In this document: positions 19,850 through 63,542 of the stretch, piece by piece | Numbering within the stretch: position 1 is the first letter of the stretch | Layout of the letters: each line of letters opens with the position of its first letter | Origin: Gemmatimonadota bacterium | Lineage (GTDB): Bacteria; Gemmatimonadota; Gemmatimonadetes; Gemmatimonadales; GWC2-71-9 | Reading direction: 5' to 3' | Length of the DNA: 64,000 nucleotides | NCBI GenBank assembly: GCA_039586815.1 | Contig: JBDHJR010000007.1 | Location: 1,844-65,843, forward strand | Notes under the pieces: model-generated | Seen by the model: the letters and a program-made list of their open reading frames with translations, nothing else | Databases searched by the model: none | What the model was told of the DNA's origin: nothing | Made by a program: the position numbers and the translations under genes

Positions 19850-19873
19850 ATCGGCAGACTCCCTTGAATGACC

Positions 19874-40819: not shown

Positions 40820-41215
40820 TCAGCCGGTGTGGCACAGGGTGCAGTACTTCACATCCCTGCCCTCGTGGCTGGCCGGAGCGTCGGGAATGGCCTCCATGGC
40901 ACCGGGCGTGTGGCACATCATGCACTGCTCCCTGCCCTGCACGCCGTGGGAGACCGCCTTCGGGCTCATCGTCTGCATCGGCGAGTCTGTCGCGTGGCAC
41001 CACATGCACGTCTCGATGCCCCGTCCCTCGTGGGTCGCGGGCGCATCGGGCACCGCCTCCATGGCACCAGCGGTGTGGCACATCAGGCAGTTGTCCCGCC
41101 CCTGCACGTCGTGGCTCACCGGTGGCGGCATCGTCTCCTGCCCGAACGCCGGCACCGCAAGCACGCTGGCCACTAGCAACACACCCATGGCACTCGCGAA
41201 TCTCGCATGGCTCAT
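40820..41215 (-). CDS. Tetraheme c-type cytochrome built from an internal tandem duplication
   Basis: Signal MSHARFASAMGVLLVASVLAVPAFGQ. Two ~50-aa repeats: VSHDVQGRDNCLMCHTAGAMEAVPDAPATHEGRGIETCMWCH and VSHGVQGREQCMMCHTPGAMEAIPDAPASHEGRDVKYCTLCH. That gives 4 CxxCH motifs. Confidence 0.8.
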   Translation of the reverse strand: MSHARFASAMGVLLVASVLAVPAFGQETMPPPVSHDVQGRDNCLMCHTAGAMEAVPDAPATHEGRGIETCMWCHATDSPMQTMSPKAVSHGVQGREQCMMCHTPGAMEAIPDAPASHEGRDVKYCTLCHTG

Positions 41216-42277: not shown

Positions 42278-43797
42278 TTCGCGCTCCGCGCTTCGGGAAT
42301 CAGGAGGATCGACGGGTGCAGCGTCGGCGCGTCCGGGGTCGAGCCAAAGTAGAGCGTCAGACCCAGGTTGAAGCGCCACTGATCCCACTTGAACGCCGCA
42401 GCGTCGGGCCGCCGACGGTCTTCCGTGTAGTAGCGGGCCTCACCCATCACCCGCACGTCCGGAACCGGCAGGTAGTCGATCCGCAGCGCGCCGTTCCACC
42501 CCTTCACGTCGTTGAAGCGGTACTCCAGCGGCCGCGAGAGGTATCCGCCGTGCCCCGTGATCGTCAGGTTGTCGACCGGCGCCTCCCAGGTGACGCGGAG
42601 GTCGGCGCCGAGCTGCGTCGCGCCCGTTCCCTTCTCGGCCCAGTAGTTGCCGCCGATGCGCCACCGGTCGAACCCCGAGTAGGTGACGCCGAACAGGCCG
42701 CGCCACCCGTCGTTGGCGACGGTCCCGAAGCGGTCGGTGGCCTCGGTGTCCTCGTACTTGAAGATCTCACCGACGCCGCGCAGCTCCAGCCCCCTGATCG
42801 GGTACCAGTAGACGTTGCCGAACCCGGCGTTGTAGCCGACCGGGCTGAAGGAATTCCAGATCTGCCACAGCGGGAAGTTGGGGCGATAGCGCCGCCAGCC
42901 CACGTTGGCCCTGATGTTGCGCTTGGGGGTCGTGTACCCCACGGCCACATCAGCCGTCCCGACCACCCTCTGCGCGATGTCCCACTGCACGCCGCCGGTG
43001 ACCGAGAAGCCGCGCGAGGGGTACCAGGCCAAATCGAGGGTCGTCTGCTCGGCGAACAGGTAGTTGGCGGAGGAGGCCGCGTCGATCTCGCGGTGGTACA
43101 GCCAGCGCCCCTCGAACCCCTTGAGACGCCAACCGAGTCCGCCTCCAATCACGTACTGCCGCTGGGACGGCTGGTATTGGTCAAGCGGATTCACGTACTG
43201 GCTGGAAACCAGCACGGGAGTCCCGCGGGCCAACCCCCATCCGCCGTAGCCGAAGACCTCGAGCCTGCGGTCGAGTAGGAAGAGGTTGAGCTTGGCGCCG
43301 TCCACACCGATGTATCCCAGACGGTTGGTCTCGTGGAACCGGCCCAGCACTGCGGTGAGAAGACTGATCTTGTACTCCCCGTAGGCCTCGAGCAGCTGCA
43401 CGTCCGGCTTCACGGCGGGCCACACGTCGGGGTTCGCCAGATCGGTGCCGGCCCGGGCCTTCACGCGGAAGCTCAGGCCCCTGACGCCGAGCCCAAACAG
43501 CGCCGCATCGAGCGTGCTCACCAGCGGCGCACCCTGCCGCGCCGCTCCCTCTTTGTGGTAGTAGCAGGTCGACGTCGTGCCCTCGCCGCACGTCACGGCG
43601 AAGCCGTTCCACTCGTAGCCCCCGGTGGCGCCGGTCGTCACATCGGCGAATGGAACGCTGTCCAGATCCCAGCCCTTGTAGGCGACGGACTGGAACCAGG
43701 TGTCGAGTCGGACCTGGTATCCTTGGGCGAGAACCGGTGCCGTCCAGAAGACCAGTGCTGCGGCGGCAACCATCACGCGGACGAAGGACCGCTTCAT
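42274..43797 (-). CDS. Putative outer-membrane beta-barrel protein (porin partner of the dodecaheme)
   Basis: ATG at 43797. Signal MKRSFVRVMVAAAALVFWTAPVLAQ. It is Cys-free and rich in Gly/Tyr/Trp/Arg, with alternating-hydrophobic strands (…GLSFRVKARAG…, …LDLAWYPSRGFSVTGGVQWD…, …WRFNLGLTLYF…). I rejected the 95-codon 5' extension in the track. Confidence 0.6.
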   Translation of the reverse strand: MKRSFVRVMVAAAALVFWTAPVLAQGYQVRLDTWFQSVAYKGWDLDSVPFADVTTGATGGYEWNGFAVTCGEGTTSTCYYHKEGAARQGAPLVSTLDAALFGLGVRGLSFRVKARAGTDLANPDVWPAVKPDVQLLEAYGEYKISLLTAVLGRFHETNRLGYIGVDGAKLNLFLLDRRLEVFGYGGWGLARGTPVLVSSQYVNPLDQYQPSQRQYVIGGGLGWRLKGFEGRWLYHREIDAASSANYLFAEQTTLDLAWYPSRGFSVTGGVQWDIAQRVVGTADVAVGYTTPKRNIRANVGWRRYRPNFPLWQIWNSFSPVGYNAGFGNVYWYPIRGLELRGVGEIFKYEDTEATDRFGTVANDGWRGLFGVTYSGFDRWRIGGNYWAEKGTGATQLGADLRVTWEAPVDNLTITGHGGYLSRPLEYRFNDVKGWNGALRIDYLPVPDVRVMGEARYYTEDRRRPDAAAFKWDQWRFNLGLTLYFGSTPDAPTLHPSILLIPEARSAK

Positions 43798-43955: not shown

Positions 43956-46814
43956 TTACTGGTACCCGAAGAGCATGGAGTACACGATCAGCGCAATCAA
44001 CGTGAGCCCGACTCCGAGCGCCGCAAAAGCGAAGATCCGGAACCCCAGCTCCACCCGCTTGGGGTAGGGCTCGACCAGCCACTCCTCCAGCTTACCCTCC
44101 GCCACCAACTCCTCGTACTCTCCGGGCTTGTCAGCCTTCAGCTCCTCGATGGGCACTCGACCCGTGAAGATCACCGGGTCCATCGGGAATTTGTCGGGCC
44201 GGAAGTGCGTGTTGAAGAAGTGCACGGTGAAGATGAACGCCACCGCCAGCAGCTTCACCGACCACCCGGGCATGATGATCGTGAACAGCTCCGGGAACCA
44301 GAGCAGCAGGCCCGTCGAGCCGATGATGAACATCCCCCAGAAGACCGCGAAGTAATCGAACTTCTCCCAGTAGGTGTACCGCCCGTACTTGGGCCGCGGA
44401 CCACGGCCGAAGAACCACCTGATCGACTGCCCGAACTCCCGGAGGTCACGGGAACCGAAGATGATGGAATCCCGCGAGGTGATGTACTGCCACCACGTCA
44501 GTCCAGCGCTCTTCTTCTGCTTGCGCACGTCCCACAGGTGCACCAGGAACGTCGCGATGAGCGCCACTGCGCCGACACGGTGCAGCACCCCCGTTGTCTG
44601 GAACCCACCGGCCAGCCGCGCGGAAACCTGCGCCCACCCCATGTACGAGAACTTCAGCACCATCCCCGTGAGGGCCAGTATGAAGAAGCTGAGCAGCATC
44701 ACACCGTGCAGCGATCGCTGGAACACGGTGAACCGGCGGTACAGCGGCTCCCCGGGCTTCGCGTGGTGCCGCTTTCGCGCCTCCGGCGTGCGCACCAGCC
44801 GGAACAGCCACGCCAGGGTGTGCAGCGTGGCGAAGGTCAGAGTACCGACCAGCAGTGCCGTCATGCCCCAGAAGGTCCAGAACAGGAACGGGTATTTCTC
44901 CGGATCGTGGTGCGTGGCGTGTGTGAGATACCCCGTGAAGCGGATGTTGGCGCCAGCGTGGCACCGTGAGCAGGTCTCCACCACGTTGCGGCGGCTCAGC
45001 AGCGAGGTCGGCTCGCTGGTGGGCAGGATGTTGTGGGTCCCGTGGCAGTCGTAGCACTTGGCGGCCGCCTCGTCCCCCAAGCGCGAGACCTTGCCGTGGA
45101 ACGTGTCGAAGAAGGTCTTTGCCTCGTCCTCGTGACACCGGCCGCACTGGTTCATCATGAGCAGCCGGAAGTCGCCCCGGTCTACCCGCCTGATGGTGTG
45201 CGACGTGTGGCAGTCCTCGCAGGTGGGGAGCGAGCGGTGGTCGTCGGGCTCTCCCACGTCCGGCGAGTGGATGCTGGTGTTGAAGATCTCCTCGATGCCG
45301 TGATGGCACGTACCGCAAGTCCCGGCGAGGTTGTCGGGGTGCACACTCGAGTTGGGGTCGTCCGCTGGCAGCTCGCGGTGCGCCGTGTGGCAATTGCTGC
45401 ATGTGGCGGTCACAACCAGTCCGCTCTCGAACAGCCCCTTGCCGTGGATGCTCATCTCGTAGCTCTCCACGGGGGGCGGGATGTCCATTGTGCGCGCCAG
45501 GGCTTCGAGCGGCTCCGGTCCAGCGGCTTCGATGTCCTCCATTAGGTGCGCCGACTCGATGCGCACCGCAGCGGTCTGGCCCGTGCGGTGGCACTGCGCG
45601 CACAGCGCCGGCACGTTGCGGGCGAAAGTCGGCGAGGCCGGGATCCGCTTGCCCAGGGTAGCGTGCTGGTCGTGGCAGTCGAGACACACCGGTGCGTCAG
45701 GATCACCTTCGGCGGCCAGCCGGCCATGCATGCCGGCCGTGTACTCCCCGACCTCGTCCTCGTGGCACGCGGCGCAGTCCACCCGCTGGGTGATCGCCGC
45801 GCAGGGTCGCGATAGCCTGGGGCTCACCTCAGCGTGGCACTGGGCACACGGTGTCTCCGCGTGGCTCGAGGTGAAGTACGCTTCCTCGTTCACGTAGAGC
45901 GACACCGTGTCGCCCCGCGCCACTCCCACGAGCTCCTCGTCACCGTGGCATCGCAGGCAGTTGGCGTTGGCCGAGCCAGCCTCGTAGAACACCCTGCGAA
46001 TACGGTGCGGCGCATGGCAGTCCACACAGGCGGGGATCTGGTGAGGCTCCTCCTCCCATAGCCGCCCCTCGATGACCTGCACGTGCACCTGCTCGATCTG
46101 CGCGTGGCACTGCGTGCAGGTTTCCGCGACGTTGTCGTGGTGGATGCTCGAGCGGGCGTCGGTGTGCGGTAGGATGAAGTGCGACGTATGGCACGAGGTG
46201 CACACCGCCGTCACGGTGAGCCCCTGCTCGTACAGCCCCGAGCCGTGGATCGACTGGGAGTAGTTCTCGAGGATGCTGTCCTGGGGAATCTGCAACCGCC
46301 GCGAGACTGGCGTGCCCTCCTGGTGGCACTCCCCGCACAGGAACGGGATGTTCATCACCCGCGTGGGCGAGCGGGGGTCGCGGTGGGAGCGTATGTCGTG
46401 CGTGCCGTGACAGTCGACGCAGCTGGGGGCAAGCGGGTCGGCACGGGCTGCCGCCTGCCCGTGCAGTGAAGCGTCGTGCTCCTCCGCCTGCTGGCGGTGG
46501 CACAGGCTGCAGTCGACCGCCGGCACATCGTCGGGATGCGGGAAGCTCAGCCCGGTGTGGCACATGACGCAGAGCATCCCGGTCTGCCCGTGCGCGGATC
46601 CGCCGAACTCTTGCTCGTCCACGACGAGCTGCGCAGCGTCGGGGCGCCCCTCGAACAGCGCGGGGTTGGTGTGGCACATCAGGCAGGGTTGATTGTCCTG
46701 TGCCACTGCGCCCGCAGCCACACAACAGAAGAAGGCGGCGAGCAGCACACCCCTCCCAACCACCCACACCCGATGGTTCCGGCTGCTCGACCGCCACCCA
46801 TGATGGCTGCGCAT
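43956..46814 (-). CDS. CbcL-like fusion: 19-heme periplasmic cytochrome c domain + C-terminal diheme b-type (HydC/FdnI-like) membrane domain
   Basis: ATG at 46814 (MRSHHGWRSSSRNHRVWVVGRGVLLAAFFCCVAAGAVAQ). I counted 19 CxxCH motifs from CLMCH to CSRCH. A 4-5 TM domain follows with conserved His residues (…FQRSLHGVMLLSFFILALTG…, …GVLHRVGAVALIATFLVHLWD…, …FIFTVHFFNTHFRPDKFPMD…). Confidence 0.85.
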   Translation of the reverse strand: MRSHHGWRSSSRNHRVWVVGRGVLLAAFFCCVAAGAVAQDNQPCLMCHTNPALFEGRPDAAQLVVDEQEFGGSAHGQTGMLCVMCHTGLSFPHPDDVPAVDCSLCHRQQAEEHDASLHGQAAARADPLAPSCVDCHGTHDIRSHRDPRSPTRVMNIPFLCGECHQEGTPVSRRLQIPQDSILENYSQSIHGSGLYEQGLTVTAVCTSCHTSHFILPHTDARSSIHHDNVAETCTQCHAQIEQVHVQVIEGRLWEEEPHQIPACVDCHAPHRIRRVFYEAGSANANCLRCHGDEELVGVARGDTVSLYVNEEAYFTSSHAETPCAQCHAEVSPRLSRPCAAITQRVDCAACHEDEVGEYTAGMHGRLAAEGDPDAPVCLDCHDQHATLGKRIPASPTFARNVPALCAQCHRTGQTAAVRIESAHLMEDIEAAGPEPLEALARTMDIPPPVESYEMSIHGKGLFESGLVVTATCSNCHTAHRELPADDPNSSVHPDNLAGTCGTCHHGIEEIFNTSIHSPDVGEPDDHRSLPTCEDCHTSHTIRRVDRGDFRLLMMNQCGRCHEDEAKTFFDTFHGKVSRLGDEAAAKCYDCHGTHNILPTSEPTSLLSRRNVVETCSRCHAGANIRFTGYLTHATHHDPEKYPFLFWTFWGMTALLVGTLTFATLHTLAWLFRLVRTPEARKRHHAKPGEPLYRRFTVFQRSLHGVMLLSFFILALTGMVLKFSYMGWAQVSARLAGGFQTTGVLHRVGAVALIATFLVHLWDVRKQKKSAGLTWWQYITSRDSIIFGSRDLREFGQSIRWFFGRGPRPKYGRYTYWEKFDYFAVFWGMFIIGSTGLLLWFPELFTIIMPGWSVKLLAVAFIFTVHFFNTHFRPDKFPMDPVIFTGRVPIEELKADKPGEYEELVAEGKLEEWLVEPYPKRVELGFRIFAFAALGVGLTLIALIVYSMLFGYQ

Positions 46815-46958
46815 CCTCGTCACCACTCGTCCCCGCCTAGATTCGATCGAATCGTGCCCCCGCCAAGATACACTTGAATGCCGCACCGAGAGCCGGCCCG
46901 GTAGATCCTAAAGAATTCCTCACCCGAATTTGTAAGTCGGTGCCAGGTCACCCCTTAG

Positions 46959-47016: not shown

Positions 47017-49008
47017 TCAGTTCTTCGTCCGCACCGTTCCGCCTGATTCTCGCGTCGGCGTGTTCTGCGCTGCGGCGGCGTTCTCATCAACGCCTTGAGC
47101 CGAGGCCGCGGGAGCCAACTCCTCGTCATACCACTGCGCGTGGTGGTGCATCACGAAATGCTCCGGCAAGCGGCCCGTTAGCCATGCCCAGTTCATGGGG
47201 TATGCGTCGGGGTGCACGATCACGAAGAAGAGGTGCCACACCAGGATTGCAAGCGTGGCGAGCCAGGCCTCGTAGTAGTGCACCGTCTGCGACGCCGGCA
47301 CGATCCACCACGGCAGGATCTTCACCGCCGCGACCGGGAACCAGAGCACGAATCCGGTCACCACCATGACCACCGTGCCCCACACCAGCGCCCAATACTC
47401 CGCCTTCTGCGTGTAGTCGTAGCGCCCGAAGCGCGGGTGCTTCCTCGTACGCCACGTGTAGTACCGCAGGTACTGCGTCGCGTCGGTGGCGTCGCGCCAC
47501 TGCGGCAGCATCGCCTTGAACTCTTCCTTGCCCCGCCGCGTCATCATGACGTACAGCACGTGGCTCACCGCCACCGCGATGAGCACGACCGCGGCGATGC
47601 GGTGCAGGTTGGAGCGCACCGGCTCGTTCATGCCGATGGCGGTGAGCCATTGGACCCACCACGCGTCGGGGAACCGCAGCGCAAACCCCGTGACCACCAG
47701 CAGGATGAAGGCCACGGCGTTGACCATGTGTTGCGCCACCTGAGTACGATCGAGCCGCGTGATGTAGCCCACCCGCCGTTCCTCCCGGCGGCGCTCGATC
47801 AGGTAGTAGTTGAACACCACGGCGTTGTGCAGCGCCATGATCCCGATCGTCGCCGCGATGATCACGTAGTAGATGAGGCGGATCACGTTGTTGATCGGGT
47901 TGGCCGCCATGGAGGCCGTGATGTGGGTGTAGCTGGTTGCGAACTCCGTGTCGGCATCCGGATGGCACTGTCCGCAGGTGGCCGTCAGGTTGGCCGGGTG
48001 GATCGTGGAGGCCGAGTCGGACGCCGGCAGCACTGCATGGGTGGTGTGGCAGCTCACGCAGGTGGCGGCGCGCTCATAGTCGCGGGCCGTCGCCCAACCG
48101 TGGTAGCTGTCCTCGTAGGTGCCAATGACGCCACCCTGCATGCCATACTTGGCGATGATCTCCGGGTCGCCGTGGCACTCGCCGCACGTCTCGGTCGCGA
48201 GCCGGGCGTCGTAGGTCCGGGCGTGGGGGTCGTCGTGGGACAGGATCAAGTGCTCCCCGTGACAGTCCGTGCACGTGGGGCTGTCGCCCAACCCCGCCCG
48301 CAGCGCCCGCCCGTGAATCGAGGCATCGTAGAGCCGCTCAATTTCGTCGTGGCATTGGCCGCACGTGGAGGCGACGTTCAGGTGGTTGATCTTGGACTCG
48401 GGGTCCAGCGTCCCCCGCAGATCGTGCACGCCGTGGCAGTCGGTGCAGCGGGCGGCATCTCCGTCACCGTTGCGGCCGTGCACTGACTGGGCGTACGACC
48501 CGTAGATCTGGGGCAGGCGGACGGCCTCTTCGGTACGCAGGCCCGCCTCGCCGTGACAGGCGGCGCACATTATTGGGACGTTCTCGTGGTGAGTACGCGC
48601 CTCCGGATCCGAGCTGCGCCGGATGTCGTGCGCCCCATGACAGGAGGCGCAGGTCGGAGCTGCGGCAACCCCGCGCGCCAACGCGTAGCCGTGCAGGCTC
48701 TCGCTGAACTCCTGTTCCACGCCGCCGTGACACCCTCCGCAGCTCGGTGGCGGGGCGTCGGCAGGATGGGGGAACCCCGTGTAGCCCTGGTGACAGAACA
48801 CGCACTGCAAGCCAAGCGCCCCGTGCACGGAGGATGTGTACTCCTCCTCCGTGACCACCATCTGCGTCGGGTCCTCCAGCCCGGAGAACATGGCCACGTC
48901 GCCGTGGCACATGAGGCAGAGTTGGTTGTCCTGGGCCGCGGCGGGCTGTGCCGCTATGAATACGCTGGCGATCGCCAGCGAGAAGATCGTCAAGGGACTC
49001 GCGCGCAT
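47017..49008 (-). CDS. CbcL-like fusion: 11-heme cytochrome c domain + C-terminal diheme b-type membrane domain
   Basis: ATG at 49008 (MRASPLTIFSLAIASVFIAAQPAAAQ). 11 CxxCH motifs: CLMCH, CVFCH, CGGCH, CASCH, CAACH, CTDCH, CGQCH, CTDCH, CGECH, CVSCH, CGQCH. The TM domain has His residues at …VAQHMVNAVAFILLVVTG…, …LHRIAAVVLIAVAVSHVLY…, …TVHYYEAWLATLAILVWHLFFVIVHPD…. Its N-terminal 60 aa are clearly paralogous to those of 43956-46814. Confidence 0.85.
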   Translation of the reverse strand: MRASPLTIFSLAIASVFIAAQPAAAQDNQLCLMCHGDVAMFSGLEDPTQMVVTEEEYTSSVHGALGLQCVFCHQGYTGFPHPADAPPPSCGGCHGGVEQEFSESLHGYALARGVAAAPTCASCHGAHDIRRSSDPEARTHHENVPIMCAACHGEAGLRTEEAVRLPQIYGSYAQSVHGRNGDGDAARCTDCHGVHDLRGTLDPESKINHLNVASTCGQCHDEIERLYDASIHGRALRAGLGDSPTCTDCHGEHLILSHDDPHARTYDARLATETCGECHGDPEIIAKYGMQGGVIGTYEDSYHGWATARDYERAATCVSCHTTHAVLPASDSASTIHPANLTATCGQCHPDADTEFATSYTHITASMAANPINNVIRLIYYVIIAATIGIMALHNAVVFNYYLIERRREERRVGYITRLDRTQVAQHMVNAVAFILLVVTGFALRFPDAWWVQWLTAIGMNEPVRSNLHRIAAVVLIAVAVSHVLYVMMTRRGKEEFKAMLPQWRDATDATQYLRYYTWRTRKHPRFGRYDYTQKAEYWALVWGTVVMVVTGFVLWFPVAAVKILPWWIVPASQTVHYYEAWLATLAILVWHLFFVIVHPDAYPMNWAWLTGRLPEHFVMHHHAQWYDEELAPAASAQGVDENAAAAQNTPTRESGGTVRTKN

Positions 49009-49195: not shown

Positions 49196-51184
49196 TTACC
49201 CACCACCCAATGGCGCGACGTCGTGACACAGGTGGCACTCCGCGGGAGCGTTGTGCTCCACCCGGTCGGCGTGGCAGATGGTGCACACCTGGCGGGACCA
49301 CTCGGTGATCCCCTGCGCCTTGTCGCCGTGGCATGTGCTGCACTGCGAGTGCCCGAAAGCGAGCGCGTGGCGGTCCTGCACCCCGCCCCGGTGGCACGAG
49401 AGGCAGTCCGCCTCGGGCTGATGGTGCATGTCGTGGCACGCCACGCAGTCTACGCCCCCACCGCTCATGTTGGGCGCGGCGTGGCACATGCTGCACGAGA
49501 GCCCGGCATCCCGGTGCGGGGCGTGCGGGAAGTCGCCGGTCTCGGTTGCCACCGGCGCCTCGGGTGCGCCACCGGGACCCGCGTGGCACTCGGCGCAGTT
49601 GCGGGATTCGATCTGCGCGTGGTGGCACCCGACGCAGTCGGAGGGCGAGCTGAGCAGCGTCTTACCGTGATCGTCGAGCGGCGAGTGGCAGCTCGCGCAG
49701 TCGAGGCCGGCATCCAGCACGTGTCGTTCATGATCGAACGCGGTGCCGCGGAACGAAAGCTCGCTGCGCTCCACCCCCAGGTGACACTGCAGGCAGACGT
49801 TCTCGCTCACCCGCGGCCCGAGGTCCACCTGTGGCACCGCGTACGGGAGGCTGCCCGCGCGCACGGCTTCTTCCACCAACTCCACGCTCGCCCGCAGCAG
49901 CTCGTCGGCGTAGGCGATGTTGTGCGCCCCCTTACCGAGCTCGACGAACTCCACGTTCTCCCGGGCGAGCTCCAGCAGCGAATCCACCTGTGTTCGGGTG
50001 CGCACCTGGGCCGACCCGGCAGCCCGCACTGCCCCCTCTACCACACGCGACGCGAGCCGCACCTTGCGGTCCATCTCCTGCTGCCATGAGGGCAGGATGT
50101 TGACGTAGCGGATACCGTGACACGACAGGCACGACGCCTCGCCGGCGAACCGTACCGACTCGTGCGCGCTCACGCCGCGGAGCAGCTCGTGGCACCCGGT
50201 GCAGGAGACCCGGGCGAGGAACATGGAGCTCGGAGTGTCGTCGGATCCGTGACCGCCGATCCCCGCATACAGTTGTTGCTGCGCCTCGTGCACCCGTCGG
50301 TGGCAGGCCTCGCAGTCGAGTTGGGCTGTCTCGTTTAGTGAGAAGAGCTGATGCACGATCTCTGTGTGGCACTGGGTGCATTCCACGTTGTGCTCGGCGA
50401 TGTGCACCCGATGAACGAGCGTCGTGTTCTCGAACTCCTCGACGCGCTCCGGCCGATTGTGGCACGTCCAGCAGCGTTGCTCGTCGGCGTCCCCCGTGCC
50501 GCGCCGCACCTCATCATGACACGATACGCAAGAGACGAGGTCCTCCACATACTGCTCGTGGTCCACGACGAACCCCGCCGGCGAAACGACGCGTGGTGGT
50601 GCCGTGTGGCACGCTACGCAGCCCGCCACCGGCTCGTCTGCCTCGGCGGCCTTGAAGTGACACAGATTGCACGTCGTCTGCGTGACCGCGAGGTGCTGTC
50701 CCTGTACTATCTGGGAGTGGCACGATGTACAGCGTAGCTGCTTGCCGCGGCGCAGCTCGCCCAGGTGCTGGGTGTGGTCGAACCGCACCCCTCGGTAGTT
50801 CACCACGCCTTCGACCTTGCGCAGCGAGTGGCACCCCGAACGCAAGCAGGCGGCGTCCTCGATCTCGGCCCACGGCTTGGTGCCATAGGCCCCCGTCACG
50901 TACCGCGCTACCTGGTTGGCCGCCTGGAACTTGCCCATCGCTTCGGCCTTCACCCCTGGCGCGTAGTGGCACTTGATGCAGGGCACGTCGTTGTGGGAGG
51001 AGGTCGCCCAGGAATCGTAGTAGGGCTGCATGATGTGGCAGTTGGTGCAGAAGCCCGGCTGGGCGCTGTACTCGATGAACCCGACCGCCCCCACCGCCGC
51101 CAGGATCACCGCGAGCACGCCGATCTGAATGCCGATCTTCAGCGGCTTCGAGAGACGCTGGAGCTGCTCCGAGGCGCGTCGCAT
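49196..51184 (-). CDS. NapC/NirT(CymA/ImcH)-headed membrane-anchored multiheme cytochrome, 21 CxxCH + one CX4CH
   Basis: N-terminal TM helix (IGIQIGVLAVILAAVGAVGFI) is followed directly by CTNCHIMQPYYDSWATSSHNDVPCIKCH, the NapC/NirT quinol-dehydrogenase head. 19 further CxxCH motifs run along 660 aa. An additional CLRSGCH is present. Confidence 0.85.
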   Translation of the reverse strand: MRRASEQLQRLSKPLKIGIQIGVLAVILAAVGAVGFIEYSAQPGFCTNCHIMQPYYDSWATSSHNDVPCIKCHYAPGVKAEAMGKFQAANQVARYVTGAYGTKPWAEIEDAACLRSGCHSLRKVEGVVNYRGVRFDHTQHLGELRRGKQLRCTSCHSQIVQGQHLAVTQTTCNLCHFKAAEADEPVAGCVACHTAPPRVVSPAGFVVDHEQYVEDLVSCVSCHDEVRRGTGDADEQRCWTCHNRPERVEEFENTTLVHRVHIAEHNVECTQCHTEIVHQLFSLNETAQLDCEACHRRVHEAQQQLYAGIGGHGSDDTPSSMFLARVSCTGCHELLRGVSAHESVRFAGEASCLSCHGIRYVNILPSWQQEMDRKVRLASRVVEGAVRAAGSAQVRTRTQVDSLLELARENVEFVELGKGAHNIAYADELLRASVELVEEAVRAGSLPYAVPQVDLGPRVSENVCLQCHLGVERSELSFRGTAFDHERHVLDAGLDCASCHSPLDDHGKTLLSSPSDCVGCHHAQIESRNCAECHAGPGGAPEAPVATETGDFPHAPHRDAGLSCSMCHAAPNMSGGGVDCVACHDMHHQPEADCLSCHRGGVQDRHALAFGHSQCSTCHGDKAQGITEWSRQVCTICHADRVEHNAPAECHLCHDVAPLGGG

Positions 51185-51185
51185 C

Positions 51186-52421
51186 CTACGGCTTGGCTTC
51201 CCGCAACTTGAACCAGGCGAGCGCGATCACCGATAGCGCCAGGAACCAGACCGGAACGAGCAGCAGCTTGTGCTCCCACTGTTCCTCCGCGTGCGCCTCC
51301 GCCGTGGCCCGGATGATCCCCGTGTTCGAACGCACACGCAGCCCAAGATCTCTCAGCTGTTCGAGGTCCAGACTGTGCTGCACCAGCGCGACCTGGTTGT
51401 ATTCTGAGACGGCACTCTGGTAGCGGAAGCGCTCATCAGCTACCTCGTGACCCATCGCCACCATCTCATCGATGGCATCGGCCGCCTGGTGGAGCTCCTC
51501 CGTGGCTCGCAGCACTTGTTCCTGGATCTCCGCGCCCATGAGTCCCGGACCACTCTCGGCATCGTGACACCTTTGACACAGCGCGGCGATCGCGTCGAAC
51601 GGCGTGCGCTCGGTACCATGGTTGCTGTGGCATCCTAAGCAGCCCTGGAGCTCCCCGCTGCGTGCCGGCCCACCGTGCGGCCCCCGGTAGAACGCTCGCC
51701 CCAGAAGCTCGTGGCACTGACTGCACACGTCGGCGATCTGGTTGACCGCGGGCGGCAACGCAGCGTGCGAGCCGTGACACCCGATGCAGGTCGGCGCCGC
51801 AAAATTGCGTTGCTCGAACACGGCGACTCCATGGGCTCCGGTGCGGTAGCGCTCGAACTGATCGGTGGGCTCCCTGTACCGGGCCATGAGCTGCGCGTCC
51901 TCATGGCAGTTCCCGCACGTGGCCGGGATGTTCGTGGGGTGGACCTCGCTGCGCGCATCCTCCGGCGGCAGGATCAGGTGCGCGTTGTGGCAGTCGGTGC
52001 ACGTGGGCGCGGCGGCGTCGCCCTGTTCGAGAAGCAGTTGGCCGTGGCGACTGGTGCGGAACTCGGCGAGCTGGTCGGCCGCCAGACCGTACTGCCGCAT
52101 CTGGTTGGGGTCGGCGTGGCAGGCACTGCACAGTTGGATGGTCCCCAGCTTGCTGGGCGTTCCAACGAATCGCCCCTGATGCGCTGCCGGGGCCTCGTAC
52201 ACCGCCGTGTTGCCTCCATGACAGTCGTGGCACTTGATACCCTGCTCCGAGTGCACTCCGAGCGTGAACGATCGCCGTTTGTCGGCGTGGCAGACGATGC
52301 AGCCGTACACGGAGTCGTCCTGTGCAGCGAGTCTCTGAGCCGGGGGCACGGGCGCCGCGGTGGCGCCATCCGGCACCGCCCCCAAGAGGAGCACCAACCC
52401 CAGGACCGAGAGGGTCCTCAT
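51186..52421 (-). CDS. Nonaheme c-type cytochrome with C-terminal membrane anchor (paralog of 57711-58994)
   Basis: The ATG at 52421 shares one nt with the cytochrome b stop. Signal MRTLSVLGLVLLLGAVPDGATA. Nine CxxCH motifs (CIVCH, CHDCH, CSACH, CTDCH, CGNCH, CIGCH, CSQCH, CLGCH, CQRCH). A helical region and a C-terminal TM helix LLLVPVWFLALSVIALAWF follow. The 196-codon 5' extension in the track overlaps cytochrome b and is rejected. Confidence 0.8.
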   Translation of the reverse strand: MRTLSVLGLVLLLGAVPDGATAAPVPPAQRLAAQDDSVYGCIVCHADKRRSFTLGVHSEQGIKCHDCHGGNTAVYEAPAAHQGRFVGTPSKLGTIQLCSACHADPNQMRQYGLAADQLAEFRTSRHGQLLLEQGDAAAPTCTDCHNAHLILPPEDARSEVHPTNIPATCGNCHEDAQLMARYREPTDQFERYRTGAHGVAVFEQRNFAAPTCIGCHGSHAALPPAVNQIADVCSQCHELLGRAFYRGPHGGPARSGELQGCLGCHSNHGTERTPFDAIAALCQRCHDAESGPGLMGAEIQEQVLRATEELHQAADAIDEMVAMGHEVADERFRYQSAVSEYNQVALVQHSLDLEQLRDLGLRVRSNTGIIRATAEAHAEEQWEHKLLLVPVWFLALSVIALAWFKLREAKP

Positions 52422-53779
52422 CACGGCCTCCCCACTCCATCCCCGACAGCGCTGTCTGCGGGAGATCCCGGCTCTACCGGCGTCGGCCCGACTCGTTCGA
52501 GCGGTGTGCTGGATCTCGCCGGCACCACCCGCTCCTGCCGCTCCACCTGCCCAATTCCCTCGGAGGGAGGCAACGAACCGATGCCCCGCCCCAGGGCCCA
52601 CAACATGACGAAGCCGCCGAAGAAGACCGCCCCGAGAGCGGCCACAACCGGGCGCTTGCGGATGTGTCGCTCCGGGCGTCGATCGAACAGGGGGAGGAGG
52701 AACAGGCTGAAACCCACCAGCGTAAAGGCCGTGAACCCCCACATCCCGAGATAGCGAAGCAACGCCAGCGACACGTCTACGGGCACCCAGGTGGAGACCA
52801 ATCGATCTGGTACCGTGAGGGGATCCGCCGGATTGCCGAACGGCCGCGGGAACAGCACGGCCAGGGTCACTACCAGCGCCAGGACCAGCACCGTCACGCT
52901 GAGTGACCTCAACAGGTGGTTGGGGAAGAAGGGCGTGCCCTGCTGCTCGGCCTCCTCCATCGCCTGCTTCAGAACTTCCTGTGTCGTTCCCACAGCACTC
53001 AGGCGCCACGGCGCCTTCTCTTCGTTTACTTCTACCGGCGGCGCGATGCCGCGGCGGCGCACGAGCGTGAAGTGGTACGAGAGCAGCGCCAGAGAGATCC
53101 AGGGAAGCACGATCACGTGTAGCGAGAAGAAACGGCTGAGCGTCGCGCCCGACACGATTACGTCACCCATGAGGGCATCAGCAATCACCCCACCGAAGAA
53201 CGGGAAGCCGGAGATCGCAACCAACACCTCGGTCACCGTCCAGTAGGCCCACTGATCCCAGGGCAGCAGGTAGCCGCTGGCGCCGAACGCCAGGACCACT
53301 CCCAGCAGGAGCAGCCCGACGGTCCAGTTGGTCTCCCGGGGGGGCTTATACGCCGCCTCGAACAGGACCCGCGCCATGTGCGCCAGAACGGCCAGAACGA
53401 TGAGGCTTGCGGACCAGACGTGGACGTGGTAGATCAGCCAGCCGAACGACACGTTCGACACGATGTGTTGCACGCTCGGGTTGGCCTCTTGCACCGACGG
53501 GCGATAATACAGCGCCAGCAACACGCCCGTGACCACCAGCATCATGAAGAGCACGTACGTGATGCCACCGAACATCTGGCGCCAGCCCACGTGGGGGTCG
53601 AGCCGGTACTTCAGAGCCTTGCGGAGTGCATCATCGATCCGCAGCCTGCGGTCGATCGGTCCGTAGATCAGCCCGAGGAACCGGGCGCCTCCCAGCAGGC
53701 CCGCATCTGCACTCGCCTTGAGGTCGTCCCACGTCTGGGAGAACCATAGGCTCGTGGCGTGCCACATCCGACGAATCAT
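52421..53779 (-). CDS. Cytochrome b (fused b6 + subunit-IV type), divergent: Qo PEWY motif absent
   Basis: …FGGITYVLFMMLVVTGVLLALYYRPS…FGWLIYHVHVWSASLIVLAVLAHMARV… has the heme His pair at H-x13-H. …TLSRFFSLHVIVLPWISLALLSYHF… has H-x14-H. In the position where the paralog 56113-57210 reads KPEWYF, this protein reads VSTWVP. Confidence 0.85.
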   Translation of the reverse strand: MIRRMWHATSLWFSQTWDDLKASADAGLLGGARFLGLIYGPIDRRLRIDDALRKALKYRLDPHVGWRQMFGGITYVLFMMLVVTGVLLALYYRPSVQEANPSVQHIVSNVSFGWLIYHVHVWSASLIVLAVLAHMARVLFEAAYKPPRETNWTVGLLLLGVVLAFGASGYLLPWDQWAYWTVTEVLVAISGFPFFGGVIADALMGDVIVSGATLSRFFSLHVIVLPWISLALLSYHFTLVRRRGIAPPVEVNEEKAPWRLSAVGTTQEVLKQAMEEAEQQGTPFFPNHLLRSLSVTVLVLALVVTLAVLFPRPFGNPADPLTVPDRLVSTWVPVDVSLALLRYLGMWGFTAFTLVGFSLFLLPLFDRRPERHIRKRPVVAALGAVFFGGFVMLWALGRGIGSLPPSEGIGQVERQERVVPARSSTPLERVGPTPVEPGSPADSAVGDGVGRP

Positions 53780-53780: not shown

Positions 53781-54236
53781 CTATGACTCCGTCACGTAAA
53801 CTGTGCCGTCCCGTACGAACACCGAGTAGCGGGCGAGCGGTGCGGTGGAGAGGCCGGTCACGACGTAGCCGTGCAGGTCGTAGATCACGTAGGAGCAGGG
53901 CGAGAAGACGCGCGACGACTCGTCATCCCACTGGAGGATGCAACCGTCGCTGGGGGAAACGCCCTGCAAGGCAAAGTATGTGTCTTCCTCGACCCTAACG
54001 ACGAGGATCGCGCGCTCGCCCCACCGCACCAGCCGGCTTGCGCCGACCGGGAAGTCGGCCTGGCGCACCACGCGAAACGCAGGCTGCACCTGGGGGATCT
54101 CGAGGCGCTCGCCCGGTAGGACGTAGAGCCCGACACTCAGCCCGATGGTCGCGAGGATCAGGACAACGACCGCGCCGAGCAGGAGCTCGTTGAAACCGAG
54201 CCCCGAAGTCTTCTCCTCCGCACCGTCAGCGCTCAG
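53781..54236 (-). CDS. Rieske-fold protein lacking all four 2Fe-2S ligands (pseudo-Rieske subunit), probable N-terminal TM anchor
   Basis: Alignment with the canonical Rieske protein at 57212-57694:
[32 protein letters not shown]
GVSPSDGCILQWDDESSRVFSPCSYVIYDLHG
Box spacing is identical, but Cys/His/Cys/His are all Ser, while the two disulfide Cys are kept. The track ORF starts at GTG 54089. However, the frame stays open to 54329 and encodes a TM helix (LLLGAVVVLILATIGLSVGLYVL) with no ATG/GTG/TTG. I propose a CTG start at 54236, preceded by GGGAGGGGA. The 5' end is uncertain. Confidence 0.55.
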   Translation of the reverse strand: MSADGAEEKTSGLGFNELLLGAVVVLILATIGLSVGLYVLPGERLEIPQVQPAFRVVRQADFPVGASRLVRWGERAILVVRVEEDTYFALQGVSPSDGCILQWDDESSRVFSPCSYVIYDLHGYVVTGLSTAPLARYSVFVRDGTVYVTES

Positions 54237-54315
54237 CGCTCCCCTCCCTGGATATGAGCCTGGTGGCTCGTAGTCAAACCGTGCTAAGATTGGCAGACCC
54301 CTTCCGATTGTGCAA

Positions 54316-54375: not shown

Positions 54376-55944
54376 CTACTTCCGCACCACGCCCTCCGGC
54401 AGCACCCCCTGTAGCGGCGCCGGCAGCGGGTTGGTCACGCCGTAGTGCGCAGCTCCCTCGTTGATTGAGGCGATCATCAGGGCCCGGAGGAACTTGGGAT
54501 TGTGCACGCCGTTGCCGCTGGTGGGGTGCGAGCTGATGTGGACGACAGTGGCCGGGTTGACCCGAATGTAGAAATCCGCGAACCACGGCGCGTCATCGGT
54601 CGCCGCGAGCTGCGCATTCCACAGGACACCCTCCGCCGTGGTGAACAGCACGTCGCTCACGTCGAGGATGCTGCCCCCCTCCTGCGCGACGATGCTAACC
54701 AGGAGCCCGGTATCGCCCGCGTCCAGTGTGTCGTTGGCGTTGGCATCGTCCCACACCATCTCGAGGTAGCCGGTCAGCTCGGCCTTGAAGTTCAGGTACG
54801 CGGTCCGGGCGAAATCCTCGGAGATGTGGCACGGGAGACACGCGGTAAACCGCTGCGAGTCCACCGTGCAGTTGTGGCCCGGTACCGGGATGCCCTGAGC
54901 GTTGAGGCACGGGATGGCCTCGAACAGGTGTCCCACGCTCTCGAACACAAATTCACCGGTCGCCTGGTCGTTCACCGTGAACCGCTCCACGTGACACGTG
55001 GCACACAGTCGCTCGTTGAGGTCTTCGTCACCGTGCGTCGGTACCAAGCCGTCCTGCCAGTCGAGGCTGTCCGGCCACCACCCGATGTTCTGCGCCAGCA
55101 CCAGCGGTCCCTGCGCCGCATGCGGGCCGTGCGTAGTGGCCCCGGGTATCGTGCGGTTGTTATGGCACTTGACGCAGAGGTTGCGGTTCGAGCCGATGTC
55201 GATCGGCGATCGCAGCTGCGAGTCGTTGTCACGACTGTGCGGATCGTGACACGTGGCGCACACGATGTCGAACGCGCCTGTGCTGTCCTTCTCGACGTAA
55301 TTGGCGTTCTCGCCGAACTGGGCCAGCATGGCGATGCGGCCGTTGTGGCACTCCCCGCAGTCGCTGCGACGGGAGGCGAAGCTCGTGACGTTGCCGTGTG
55401 CCGACTGGGACCACTGTTCCACGAACGGAGTGTGGACACCCGTGTGGCAGTCGCCGCAGCCGTCACCCAGACCCACGCCGGCCTGGATCGAGGCGAGCGG
55501 CTGCGTGTTCCCGGGATTCACCATATGGTCGGCGCCGGGACCGTGGCAGTTCTCGCACTGCACGTCGTAGTAGGTGGCACGGCCCACGGTGTCGCTGGAG
55601 TCGAGCGCGTTGATCCCCGCCGGGGCCGTCAGCGCGTTACCGTTCTCGCTCACCGCGTGGCAGCCCTCACAGTAATCCGCGACGTGGCCCGAGTTCTGCA
55701 AAGATGCCCACGCGTGCGAGTGGCCCGTGCTTTCCCAGTCCTTGGTCTGATCGGCGTGGCAGTTGCCGCAGGTGGGCCAGCCGGCCTCAGCGTCGGCGTA
55801 GCCGAGGAACCCGTTCACGGAATCGGGCGGCGGGTTGAAGGGATCGCGCGTTTCCGGTGTGACCGTGTCGTCGGTACACGCGGCCATGGCGAGGAACCCC
55901 AGCGCGAACACAGCCAGGAAGGCTCTTCTTACGGAATGTGCCAT
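54376..55944 (-). CDS. Nonaheme c-type cytochrome lipoprotein
   Basis: MAHSVRRAFLAVFALGFLAMAAC|TDD contains a lipobox. Nine CxxCH motifs (CGNCH, CEGCH, CENCH, CGDCH, CGECH, CATCH, CVKCH, CATCH, CLPCH), then a ~170-aa heme-free C-terminal domain. I prefer the ATG at 55944 over the track start at 55962. Confidence 0.8.
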   Translation of the reverse strand: MAHSVRRAFLAVFALGFLAMAACTDDTVTPETRDPFNPPPDSVNGFLGYADAEAGWPTCGNCHADQTKDWESTGHSHAWASLQNSGHVADYCEGCHAVSENGNALTAPAGINALDSSDTVGRATYYDVQCENCHGPGADHMVNPGNTQPLASIQAGVGLGDGCGDCHTGVHTPFVEQWSQSAHGNVTSFASRRSDCGECHNGRIAMLAQFGENANYVEKDSTGAFDIVCATCHDPHSRDNDSQLRSPIDIGSNRNLCVKCHNNRTIPGATTHGPHAAQGPLVLAQNIGWWPDSLDWQDGLVPTHGDEDLNERLCATCHVERFTVNDQATGEFVFESVGHLFEAIPCLNAQGIPVPGHNCTVDSQRFTACLPCHISEDFARTAYLNFKAELTGYLEMVWDDANANDTLDAGDTGLLVSIVAQEGGSILDVSDVLFTTAEGVLWNAQLAATDDAPWFADFYIRVNPATVVHISSHPTSGNGVHNPKFLRALMIASINEGAAHYGVTNPLPAPLQGVLPEGVVRK

Positions 55945-56112: not shown

Positions 56113-57210
56113 TCAACTCGCAGGATCGGCCGTGTATCCGAGATAGGTCAACACGATGATGTAGACGATCATGGCAATCCCGATCCACGTATACAACCGG
56201 CTCGGCTCGCCTCGTGCGGAGCGTCGGTCGAGCAGCGGGATGAGCAGCACGAAGAGACCGGCCAGGCCGAACCCGATGATGCCTACGACCTCTCCCTCGA
56301 TTCCCAAGATGTGGGCCGGTAGGTACTTCAACGTCTGGAACGTGAACATGAAGTACCACTCCGGCTTGATGCCCGCCGGCGCAGGAGCGAACGGGTCCGC
56401 CTTGTCACCGAGATGCGCCGGGAAGTAGGCCGCCAGTGCCGCCAGCGCCGCCAGCGCCACGAGCCACCCGACCAGGTCCCGCAGCAGGAAATTGGGGACG
56501 AACGGCATTGCACCCTTGCTGCCTCCGCGCCGTTCGACGTCGAGCGGGACGCTCATCCCCTGCTTCTGCACGAGGAACAGATGAAGCCCTAGAATGGCGA
56601 CGGTGAGCAGCGGAAAGACAGCCACGTGAAACGCGTAGAACCGCGTGAGCGTGGCCCCTGTCACGTCGTCTCCCCCGCGCGCCACCCGCAGCAGGAACTC
56701 CCCGACGACCGGCACCACCCCGAGGATCTCGGTCCCCACTCGCGTCGCGAAGTATGCCAACTCGTTCCAGGGCAGCAGATACCCGGTAAACCCGAAGGCC
56801 AACGCTAGGCCCATGAGCGCCACGCCGGAGAACCAAGTTATCTCCCTCGGCCGGCGGTAGGCCTTCAAGAGCAGCACGCTGAACAGGTGAATGAACAGAG
56901 TGAAGATCATCAGGTTCGCCGCCCACGAATGGATCGAGCGGACCAACCATCCGAACTCCACTTCGGCCATCAGGAACTGCACCGACTCGTAGGCCTCCTC
57001 GGCGCTCGGTCGGTAGTAGAACAGCAACAGGATGCCCGTGGACACCTGGACGATGAACAGGAAGAGGGTCATCCCACCCAGGTAGTACCAGATCGTGTGC
57101 CGGTGGACCGGCACCTCCTTCTTCTTAGCGAGGGCTTTCAGGCCGGCCAGCCCGACACGCGCCTCGAGCCACGCCTCGCACTCCACCAACCACTTTCGCA
57201 ACCGCGCCAT
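56113..57210 (-). CDS. Cytochrome b (fused b6 + subunit-IV type), canonical
   Basis: …[28 protein letters not shown]…[25 protein letters not shown]… (H-x13-H), …[26 protein letters not shown]… (H-x14-H), and the Qo motif …[17 protein letters not shown]…. Confidence 0.9.
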
Positions 57211-57710: not shown

Positions 57711-58994
57711 TCAGGTGGTGGGTTGTTCCCTGCTATCGAGCTCGCGGATCTTGAGCAGGAGCCCGACAATCAACATCCCGATGATGACCACCGAGATGGC
57801 CAATCCCATGCGTCGGAACTGGAGCCGCCCCGTTGCCTGTACCCCAAGCTCGTGGGCCGTCGCCGCGATCTCCAACCCCGACTCGACCTCGTCCTTCACG
57901 GCAATCACGTTGAACGAGTGCACGGCCGCTCGGGCGCTGATCAACGCGGTGCTCGCGCCGGTGAGCTCGAATTGCGCCTGGCTCACCTCCATGCCGGCGT
58001 CCTCTGCCCGCTCCAGAAGCGAGTCCGCCTCATGATGCGCCGTCGAGAGGGAGTCGATCAGGCTGCGCATCGCGCTGGCTACCTGGCCACCCGGGTCTCC
58101 GGAGGTGTGGCACCTGGCGCACACCGCTCCCTCCTCGAGCCCGAGTAGATCGTCACCGGGCCGCGTGATGTCGTGGTTGTTGTGGCACGTTGCACATCCC
58201 GGCACACCCAGCATCGCAAATGTCCGCGCGTGCCTGCTCTGCGCGAAGAGATCCGCCATCACGCTGTGGCACTGCCCGCACACGTTGCCGACCCAGGAGA
58301 TTCCGGGCGGGGCAGCGCCATGATTGCCGTGACAGTCGTTGCAGGTGGGTGCCGACAGATCGCCCCCTTCCGACATCGCCTCCCAATGGACGCTCCGCTG
58401 ATATCGCTCCAGTTGGTCGACGGGAATGCGATACGGCTCCATGTACTCGGCATCGGCATGACAGCTCGAGCAGGTCGCAGGTACGTTCAGCGGATTGACA
58501 CTCGAGAGCGGGTCCGTCGGCGGTCTGATGGAGTGCGCTGGGTGGCAGCTCACGCACGTCGCCGTCTTTGAATCGCCGAGCTCTATCAGCCGCCGACCGT
58601 GAACCGAGCTGGCAAATTCCGCCACCTGGTCAACACGAATCGACGGGTTATAGCGCCTCATGAACTCCGCGTTCGAGTGGCAGCGACCACAGAACTCGGC
58701 AACCTGCTCGCGCCCGGGCTTGGCGAGGAATCCCTTGGCCGGGTCCATGGAGGTAATCCCAGGATCCGTCGCATCGCCGCCGTGGCAGGCGACACAGCCA
58801 AATCCCCTCGCCGCATGAATGTCACTGGGAAACGCCCTCGCTGGATTGGAGAGCCGTTCGTCGCCCAGCACCAGGTGGCACGCTCGGCAGTTGTCCTCCG
58901 CGGCCTCCTGCTCTTGCGCAAGCACATCTGCCTGCGACGCGAACGTGGCAAGCAGACAGAGCGAGGCGAGCGTGCGGAGAGCCGAGCGCGACAT
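57711..58994 (-). CDS. Nonaheme c-type cytochrome with C-terminal membrane anchor (paralog of 51186-52421)
   Basis: Signal MSRSALRTLASLCLLATFASQADVLAQ. Nine CxxCH motifs (CRACH, CVACH, CGRCH, CVSCH, CSSCH, CNDCH, CGQCH, CATCH, CARCH). A helical region and the TM helix GLAISVVIIGMLIVGLLL follow. Confidence 0.85.
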   Translation of the reverse strand: MSRSALRTLASLCLLATFASQADVLAQEQEAAEDNCRACHLVLGDERLSNPARAFPSDIHAARGFGCVACHGGDATDPGITSMDPAKGFLAKPGREQVAEFCGRCHSNAEFMRRYNPSIRVDQVAEFASSVHGRRLIELGDSKTATCVSCHPAHSIRPPTDPLSSVNPLNVPATCSSCHADAEYMEPYRIPVDQLERYQRSVHWEAMSEGGDLSAPTCNDCHGNHGAAPPGISWVGNVCGQCHSVMADLFAQSRHARTFAMLGVPGCATCHNNHDITRPGDDLLGLEEGAVCARCHTSGDPGGQVASAMRSLIDSLSTAHHEADSLLERAEDAGMEVSQAQFELTGASTALISARAAVHSFNVIAVKDEVESGLEIAATAHELGVQATGRLQFRRMGLAISVVIIGMLIVGLLLKIRELDSREQPTT

Positions 58995-61480: not shown

Positions 61481-61496
61481 CTGTCTCTCACGACGG

Positions 61497-62843: not shown

Positions 62844-62844
62844 G

Positions 62845-63528: not shown

Positions 63529-63542
63529 CGTTCCCGCACCCC

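Follow-up and report, generated by a model that had tools for sequence, protein, structure and literature searches.

A NapC/NrfH-type membrane cytochrome with 22 haem motifs encoded in a conserved cytochrome b module of Gemmatimonadota

To our knowledge, CymA, ImcH and Cbc are the only characterised inner-membrane exits for extracellular electron transfer, and all of them come from Proteobacteria or Desulfuromonadia. In cytochromes of the NapC/NirT/CymA type and in the related NrfH, a single N-terminal transmembrane (TM) helix is followed by a haem-1 motif of the form CxxCHxM, and characterised NapC, NirT and NrfH proteins carry 4-5 haems in ~160-390 aa. Here we describe a gene of a Gemmatimonadota bacterium that encodes a membrane cytochrome c with a head of this type and 22 haem motifs in 662 aa (hereafter the target). 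It lies on the minus strand (49196..51184) of a 64,000-nucleotide stretch of contig JBDHJR010000007.1, assembly GCA_039586815.1; this whole stretch is the window, and all coordinates refer to it unless another sequence is named.

In NrfH of Desulfovibrio vulgaris (PDB 2J7A/2VR0) and in CymA, a lysine on a membrane-surface helix (Lys82 and Lys91, respectively) is needed for quinol interaction (PMC2762525). ImcH of Geobacter sulfurreducens (GSU3259) is a multihaem cytochrome of the inner membrane, and the first four of its haems are NrfH-like. Its proposed role is to draw electrons from menaquinol and release them to the periplasm for extracellular electron transfer, and in its structural model haem 1 is ligated by His and Gln (Q179), with K173 six residues earlier (bioRxiv 10.1101/2023.05.03.539133). 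ImcH is anchored by three TM helices (one in a few homologues) and has a Cx3CH first motif by the membrane domain, 7 haems (6-10 in homologues) and a length of 495-519 aa (PMC6295460). A different arrangement is found in the anammox R/b complexes and the Geobacter Cbc complexes, where cytochrome b genes are clustered with anchored multihaem cytochromes c that replace cytochrome c1 or f; bc complexes with multihaem cytochromes were proposed by Dibrova et al. 2013, according to the citation of that work in PMC5317091. Our literature search, whose coverage was incomplete, found no described complex with an NrfH-headed subunit of 12-31 haems.

A conserved link to cytochrome b, Rieske-fold and 9-haem genes

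The target closes a conserved module of four genes, here called module B, and is translationally coupled to the gene before it. In transcription order the module encodes a Rieske-fold protein, a cytochrome b (cytochrome b'), a 9-haem cytochrome and the target. The 9-haem cytochrome (51186..52421, minus strand) has a signal peptide and a C-terminal TM anchor, and the stop codon of its gene ends 1 nt before the ATG of the target. Upstream of it on the same strand are cytochrome b' (52421..53779), which is of the b6 plus subunit IV type and has a long C-terminal extension, and the TM-anchored Rieske-fold protein (53781..54238).

For comparison we took 31 genome and 80 metagenome loci. Among close relatives, defined by at least 54% identity and at least 3 kb of upstream sequence, a cytochrome b' gene was present no more than 2 kb upstream in 45 of 45, with only the 9-haem gene between it and the target homologue. 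The distance from the 9-haem stop to the target start had a median of 3 nt and was between -10 and +30 nt in 53 of 60 loci, many of which overlap by 4 or 8 nt. The closest genome locus, from a Gemmatimonadota metagenome-assembled genome (MAG), showed 91% amino acid identity and an identical gene order. This conserved genomic link to a cytochrome b, Rieske-fold and 9-haem module is our main new result. It extends a known kind of protein, the NapC/NrfH-type membrane cytochrome, to a long haem wire in a cytochrome b module. In this the target is unlike NrfH and NapC, since its partner genes encode a cytochrome b module and not a terminal reductase, and it is also unlike ImcH, as imcH has not been reported beside Rieske or cytochrome b genes.

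The first two proteins of module B depart from the canonical Rieske/cytochrome b complex: the Gemmatimonadota version has neither the Rieske cluster ligands nor the PEWY motif. Cytochrome b' retains its four haem-ligand His residues and has STWV instead of the Qo-site PEWY. The same replacement was found in all close relatives, while the paralogue at 56113-57210, which belongs to a second module (module A) in the window, is canonical and has PEWY. The Rieske-fold protein reads SPSDGC...SPCS where Rieske proteins have CxHxxC...CxCH; the four ligands of the 2Fe-2S cluster (two Cys and two His) are gone, and the two disulfide cysteines are kept. A pattern of SPxDGC...SPCx, with all four cluster ligands lost, was seen in 20 of 20 relatives, and the score of the protein against Pfam Rieske_2 is marginal. 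In the literature that we searched neither the family of the target nor a module with a cluster-less Rieske protein was described, although the coverage was incomplete and this is no proof of absence; the search did yield general notes on multihaem cytochromes in Gemmatimonadota.

The Rieske-fold gene has no ATG, GTG or TTG ahead of its TM helix. A CTG at 54236-54238, preceded by GGGAGGGGA and kept in the three closest loci, is its probable start.

Distant relatives were those with 33-42% identity and at least 4 kb on both sides. A cytochrome b gene was located within 5 kb in 11 of 14 of them, with the target-like gene sometimes being the first of the group. The Rieske neighbor is canonical in most of these distant relatives, and the head of the target is therefore not simply a replacement for a lost Rieske cluster. 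A related but distinct arrangement was observed at locus L030 of a Myxococcales MAG, where a cytochrome b and a 9-haem cytochrome are fused into one protein of 960 aa (7106-9988 of that locus, plus strand), followed by a shorter NapC-type cytochrome (303 aa, at least 12 haems) and a lipoprotein multihaem cytochrome.

Head, haem chain and family of the target

The open reading frame (ORF) of the target runs from an ATG at 51184-51182 to a stop at 49198-49196. By regular-expression count it contains 21 CxxCH motifs, starting at residues 46, 69, 152, 172, 189, 219, 238, 269, 291, 328, 352, 464, 496, 517, 530, 564, 580, 594, 615, 634 and 650, and one Cx4CH motif, CLRSGCH, between the second and third of these. 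All 44 cysteines lie inside the 22 haem motifs. In 20,000 composition-preserving shuffles the CxxCH count averaged 0.20 and did not exceed 4, so the number in the target is not due to chance. The GC content at third codon positions is 0.86 in this frame (the window has 66% GC), and this value together with the homologues identifies the minus-strand frame as the real one. A spurious high-GC ORF was ruled out on the same two grounds, and the plus-strand ORFs that overlap the region are spurious products of high GC. An assembly or frameshift artefact was also ruled out, as nearly all of the 120 homologues listed have similar lengths.

A hydropathy scan gave a sole hydrophobic segment at ~residues 13-42, and AlphaFold2 (AF2) placed an N-terminal helix at residues 2-40. 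We assign the TM helix to ~residues 17-37 (51074..51136, minus strand), which align to the TM helix of NrfH. Five basic residues (R2, R3, R10, K13 and K16) precede the helix; the N-terminus would therefore be an N-in signal anchor that leaves the haem domain on the periplasmic side. The helix is followed by CTNCH-x18-CIKCH with YYDSWATSSH in the spacer. An earlier sequence-only reading of the target had listed the single TM helix, this pair of motifs, the 21 CxxCH in 662 aa and CLRSGCH, and its counts were exact.

The NrfH/NapC-type tetrahaem head comprises residues 38-160 with haems 1-4 (50705..51073, minus strand), as delimited by hidden Markov model searches, PDB matches and conservation. 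Pfam family PF03264 matched the target at 35.2 bits (cut-off 24.1; E 1.3e-8), with residues 19-107 aligned to positions 12-106 of 174, the N-terminal half of the model only. The NrfH model TIGR03153 aligned nearly end to end (residues 23-159 on positions 8-136 of 138) and set CTNCH, CIKCH, CLRSGCH and CTSCH at the four NrfH haem positions, in the same order as in NrfH; its score of 48.9 bits is below the equivalog cut-off of 134.2. The TorC model scored 26.9 bits (cut-off 455), and TIGR02161 gave no match at E<=0.01. The best solved relative of the head was NrfH (PDB 2j7a, chain C), at E 1e-6 with the single sequence and E 3.7e-14 with the family profile. By these scores the head belongs to PF03264, and the protein as a whole is no NrfH, NapC, TorC or CymA equivalog. 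The sequence-only reading was thus correct in recognizing a NapC/NirT-type head fused to a long multihaem tail. The head is also the most conserved region, with 50% invariant columns as compared to 8-27% elsewhere in an alignment of 48 distant relatives.

Alignment to 2j7a pairs M52, K85 and Q91 of the target with Met49, Lys82 and Asp89 of NrfH. M52 is part of the haem-1 motif CTNCHIM (residues 46-52; 51029..51049, minus strand). The form CxxCHxM occurred in 120 of 120 close relatives, and the Met was kept in 48/48 of the distant relatives, K85 in 43/48 and Q91 in 37/48; K85 was invariant in an alignment of 68 close relatives. The target therefore shares with NrfH and CymA the conserved lysine of the membrane-surface helix. 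K85 and Q91 are also spaced like K173 and Q179 beside haem 1 of ImcH (six residues, Lys-x5-Gln), a comparison of spacing that was made without alignment to ImcH. These residues suggest that the head may oxidise menaquinol.

The same reading had called the target ImcH-like and about three times larger. Like ImcH, the target is an inner-membrane multihaem cytochrome with NrfH-like first four haems. In contrast to ImcH it has one TM helix, CTNCH as its first motif, no Cx3CH anywhere and 22 haem motifs, and it falls outside both the 6-10 motifs and the 495-519 aa of the published family. Of the specific features, only the Lys-x5-Gln spacing is reminiscent of ImcH. It could still work like ImcH at the quinol site.

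The NrfH haem-3 position is taken by CLRSGCH (residues 113-119; 50828..50848, minus strand), so that the head of the target, unlike NrfH, consists of three CxxCH motifs and one Cx4CH. The pattern C[LTM]R[SA]GCH was present in 119 of 120 close relatives, and its Cys, Cys and His were invariant in all 48 distant relatives, which had been picked as Cx4CH-bearing. The site that the sequence-only reading pointed out is therefore no accident, and its conservation indicates that a Cx4CH haem site is a fixed feature of a NapC/NrfH-type head in this superfamily. Cx4CH haem sites occur in tetrahaem cytochrome c3, which makes ordinary maturation of the site in the target plausible.

Haems 5-7 lie in a c7/c3-like segment (residues 161-230; 50495..50704, minus strand) that is matched by Pfam Cytochrome_C7 and Cytochrom_CIII. 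Haems 8-12 form an OcwA/NrfA-like pentahaem unit (residues 231-360; 50105..50494, minus strand). Residues ~209-434 aligned with residues 253-492 of OcwA from Thermincola potens (PDB 6i5b; E 1.9e-6 with the single sequence, 3.3e-25 with the profile), which sets haems 8-12 of the target on haems 5-9 of OcwA. OcwA haems 5-9 superimpose on the NrfA core, and its three-helix bundle is NrfA-like (PMC6703420). The family profile also matched MccA, NrfA and octahaem nitrite reductases.

As in OcwA, the five haem motifs are followed by a haem-free three-helix bundle with a G-x-H-N motif (residues 361-450, with H421 and N422; 49835..50104, minus strand), and the two bundles align. AF2 placed its helices at residues 364-387, 394-417 and 423-444, mostly with a predicted local distance difference test score (pLDDT) >90 (blocks 83-97), and the H-N pair was invariant across the 48 distant relatives. 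OcwA itself is a soluble, cell-surface, 9-haem protein of a Gram-positive host and has two open-site haems; in the target, the unit forms part of a 22-haem chain anchored in the membrane, and only half of the HH pocket motif is conserved. H299 (in CEACH-RRV-H; residues 291-300, 50285-50314, minus strand) is invariant and aligns with the first His of this HH motif, which borders the open distal pocket at haem 5 of OcwA. At the second position the target has Glu, and the residue is variable across the family. It is possible, by analogy with OcwA haem 5, that haem 8 of the target has an open coordination site. A regular-expression count found no CxxCK motif in the target.

The remaining 10 haems lie in a variable C-terminal extension (residues 451-662; 49199..49834, minus strand). 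Its residues ~476-600 resemble ActA of Alternative Complex III, cytochrome c7 and small tetrahaem cytochrome, and residues ~476-573 align with the c7-like haem domain of ActA (PDB 6BTM, 6F0K, 6LOD and 8K9E). ActA, a pentahaem protein, is likewise a subunit anchored at its N-terminus, in a membrane complex that oxidises quinol. On the other hand, the similarity covers a few haems only (E 1e-5 to 1e-2, single sequence), and no ActB- or ActC-type genes adjoin the target.

An AF2 model of the whole target, built from the 68-sequence alignment, reached a pLDDT of 65.8 and a predicted template modelling score of 0.40; its confident regions were limited to the helix bundle and some of the tail. Foldseek found no match to this model in the PDB at E<=0.001.

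By word-indexed search we obtained at least 1,400 homologues. Among the 120 best cluster representatives, identity was 59-89% and length 559-733 aa (median 670), and 115 of the 120 had exactly 21 CxxCH. The named ones among them are Gemmatimonadota MAGs, labeled only as "NapC/NirT family cytochrome c", "cytochrome c3 family protein" or "hypothetical". In the 68-sequence alignment all haem Cys are invariant, as are all motif His save H654 (at least 90%). Another 23 His outside the motifs are invariant, and axial ligands would thus suffice for all haems. The target is predicted to bind about 22 haems, with all 22 sites presumably occupied.

The wider superfamily was defined by an exhaustive HMMER scan of 1.84 billion representatives. 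With clusters taken at the 50% identity level, it comprises at least 401 of them at E<=1e-30, and 2,363 were matched at E<=1e-3. Identity to the target is 30-45% over residues ~20-590. Members are mostly of 430-920 aa and mostly have 11-30 CxxCH (12-31 haems with the Cx4CH site); the Cx4CH was kept in 118 of 150 listed representatives. They were found in MAGs of Gemmatimonadota, Myxococcota and Armatimonadota, including a 30-haem member from an Armatimonadota MAG and weaker relatives in Myxococcales MAGs. The first 11 CxxCH are invariant (one Cys at least 90%) across the 48 distant Cx4CH-bearing relatives, and superfamily members of ~450 aa with 11+1 haems lack the C-terminal extension. The invariances in the 48 relatives define a core of 12 haems plus the helix bundle, with a variable C-terminal extension. 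Compared to the characterised NapC, NirT and NrfH proteins the target is very large, but judged by its homologues it is a normal-sized member of a large superfamily and no one-off giant; the exceptional size that the sequence-only reading had emphasized does not hold among metagenomic relatives.

The surrounding respiratory island

Module B is part of a minus-strand respiratory island, in which the order of genes is an NrfC/NrfD-like pair, two class-I cytochromes c, module A, module B and a downstream set. The island begins with an NrfC-like 4Fe-4S protein (62845-63855) and an NrfD/PsrC-like membrane protein (61497-62843). These are followed by the two class-I cytochromes c, both multi-domain (60251-61480 and 58994-60250), each with 3-4 haem motifs or Pfam stretches. 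The NrfC/NrfD-like genes with the class-I cytochromes c (60251-63855 region) are possibly another quinol-interacting module.

Module A encodes, in order, a 9-haem cytochrome, a canonical Rieske protein, the canonical cytochrome b with PEWY (56113-57210) and a 9-haem lipoprotein (54376-55944, minus strand) with the lipobox LAMAAC. The N-terminal part of this lipoprotein matched the C-terminal end of the NCBIfam model "UshA-like (seleno)protein" at 63.6 bits, which is below the cut-off.

Downstream of the target there is a gap of 187 nt before the next gene. It holds a weak terminator-like hairpin (49132-49117, minus strand; 64 nt past the target stop), which is a consensus match only, as were all matches in our promoter and terminator scan. 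Past the gap, also on the minus strand, are two CbcL-like fusions (47017-49008 and 43956-46886) with 11 and 19 CxxCH haems, respectively, each joined to a b561/FdnI-type membrane domain; the 19-haem fusion is near the top of the 3-23 motifs reported for CbcL homologues. Next is a predicted outer-membrane beta-barrel that belongs to no family (42274-43797). Its AF2 model has a pLDDT of 80.7 and ~24 strands, and Foldseek returned 326 matches at E<=0.001, the listed ones being mostly outer-membrane beta-barrels, among them MtrB at E 6e-7. A 12-haem cytochrome (41324-42277) follows without a gap, and then a 4-haem cytochrome (40820-41215). As far as the barrel model and gene order go, the barrel and these two cytochromes resemble a porin-cytochrome set. 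A strong terminator-like hairpin (40793-40763) comes after them. Just past the island is a pyridine-nucleotide-disulfide oxidoreductase (37716-39053, minus strand) that is possibly sulfide:quinone reductase-like.

In close relatives, an outer-membrane barrel was found downstream of the target homologue in 10 of 25 and CbcL-like genes in 12 of 25. On the closed chromosome of a Gemmatimonadota MAG (L002; CP070716.1, locus 11974-20534), ~8.5 kb lie between the target homologue and the CbcL-like gene, where the window has the 187-nt gap.

DNA of this region occurs in sediment, estuary and other aquatic, sludge and unspecified metagenomes. In one metatranscriptome, the barrel gene, the 11-haem CbcL-like gene and cytochrome b' were matched by a few short contigs for which no differences were listed, and this is weak evidence that the cytochrome gene cluster is transcribed.

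A candidate electron wire and its alternatives

The best reading of these data is that the target is an electron-wire subunit or dedicated partner of module B, and not an ImcH homologue as judged by the published features of ImcH. On balance we lean towards the view that it serves as the periplasm-facing, inner-membrane-anchored electron wire of a bc-derived, menaquinol-oxidising module. Its motifs, conservation, domain homologies and synteny are observed; the path of the electrons is our proposal. Electrons would enter at the membrane face of the target, donated by menaquinol beside haem 1 (Met52, Lys85 and Gln91), by the cytochrome b and 9-haem partners, or by both, and would move on by hopping through a mostly bis-His haem chain to periplasmic or outer-membrane acceptors. 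The two CbcL-like cytochromes and the 24-strand porin with its 12-haem cytochrome, all encoded just downstream, are candidate acceptors at this locus. The coupled and conserved genes suggest that the four products may form one complex. We infer an outward flow to the CbcL-like or porin-cytochrome components, or to other acceptors, a direction that the sequence itself does not give.

Several points weigh against this reading. Operon linkage is no proof of a physical complex, and if the head itself oxidises quinol, the neighboring cytochrome b is left without an explained role. The Rieske neighbor of distant relatives is canonical, and 3 of the 14 have no nearby Rieske or cytochrome b gene and are found near CbcL-like genes instead. 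No member of the superfamily has been characterised, the AF2 model of the target is poor and without a significant Foldseek match, and RNA coverage of the target itself is very thin (one metatranscriptome run).

The alternative that survives best, although we consider it unlikely, is a stand-alone menaquinol dehydrogenase of the NapC/NirT/ImcH type, whose tail would lead straight to an outer-membrane porin-cytochrome with no tie to the cytochrome b genes. The sequence-only reading had proposed such a direct bridge from the quinol pool to the outer membrane. The NrfH-like head with its conserved Met/Lys/Gln signature is consistent with this idea, as is the gene pair for the barrel and the 12-haem cytochrome 5 kb downstream, and 22 haems could in principle span much of the periplasm. 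However, the outer-membrane genes are found downstream in 10 of 25 relatives, as compared to the invariant cytochrome b module upstream in 45 of 45, which the sequence-only reading overlooked. In addition, the 9-haem gene and the target overlap or abut at their stop and start codons, the 187-nt gap and the weak hairpin separate the target from the downstream genes, and the defining features of ImcH (PMC6295460) are lacking.

A bolder version of the bc-derived wire, which we regard as improbable, would make module B a Rieske-cluster-independent descendant of the bc complex. Haem 1 of the head would replace the lost 2Fe-2S cluster as the first acceptor of menaquinol electrons on the periplasmic side, and the retained dihaem cytochrome b would pass the second electron across the membrane, in a Q-cycle-like, energy-conserving process that feeds extracellular electron transfer.

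It is decidedly improbable that the system operates in reverse, as a quinone reductase that supplies the menaquinone pool or the cytochrome b module with electrons from extracellular or periplasmic donors (Fe(II), reduced minerals or partner cells). In its favor, multihaem chains can in principle run either way, Fe(III) reducers as well as Fe(II) oxidisers have CymA- and CbcL-type proteins (PMC6295460), and the cluster also has class-I cytochromes c, canonical Rieske/cytochrome b and NrfCD-like genes, which are typical of versatile respiratory chains. Nevertheless, the sequence does not indicate this direction either, no Cyc2-like or other known iron-oxidase was present among the scanned ORFs (the scan covered the window above ~37.7 kb), and electron transfer from Fe(II) to menaquinone is uphill and would need energy coupling.

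Finally, an enzymatic role as an NrfH-NrfA-type fusion, in which an open haem 8 (equivalent to OcwA haem 5 and NrfA haem 1) would reduce a soluble substrate such as nitrite, hydroxylamine or a sulfur oxyanion, is highly improbable: the profile matches to OcwA (E 3e-25), MccA, NrfA and octahaem nitrite reductases, the alignment of haems 8-12 with OcwA haems 5-9 and the invariant H299 at the first His of the distal-pocket motif speak for it, but there is no CxxCK, the second HH position is a Glu and variable across the family, 23 invariant non-motif His with M52 (the expected haem 1 ligand) and the invariant M321 (a possible ligand) suffice for 22 haems, OcwA itself functions in terminal electron transfer and shows no more than traces of nitrite activity (PMC6703420), and the genomic context consists of electron-transfer genes only.

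We therefore return to the electron wire of a bc-derived module. Sediment metagenomes are rich in members of the target superfamily (hundreds of clusters at 50% identity), and since these are almost always encoded beside a cytochrome b complex, their probable role in sediment bacteria is to conduct electrons of respiration away from the membrane of the cell. If this is true, the superfamily would represent a fourth class of quinol-to-periplasm conduit and would provide a marker for electron-exchanging metabolism in poorly known phyla. The Gemmatimonadota module would, moreover, be a natural experiment on the function of a bc complex after loss of the Rieske cluster.

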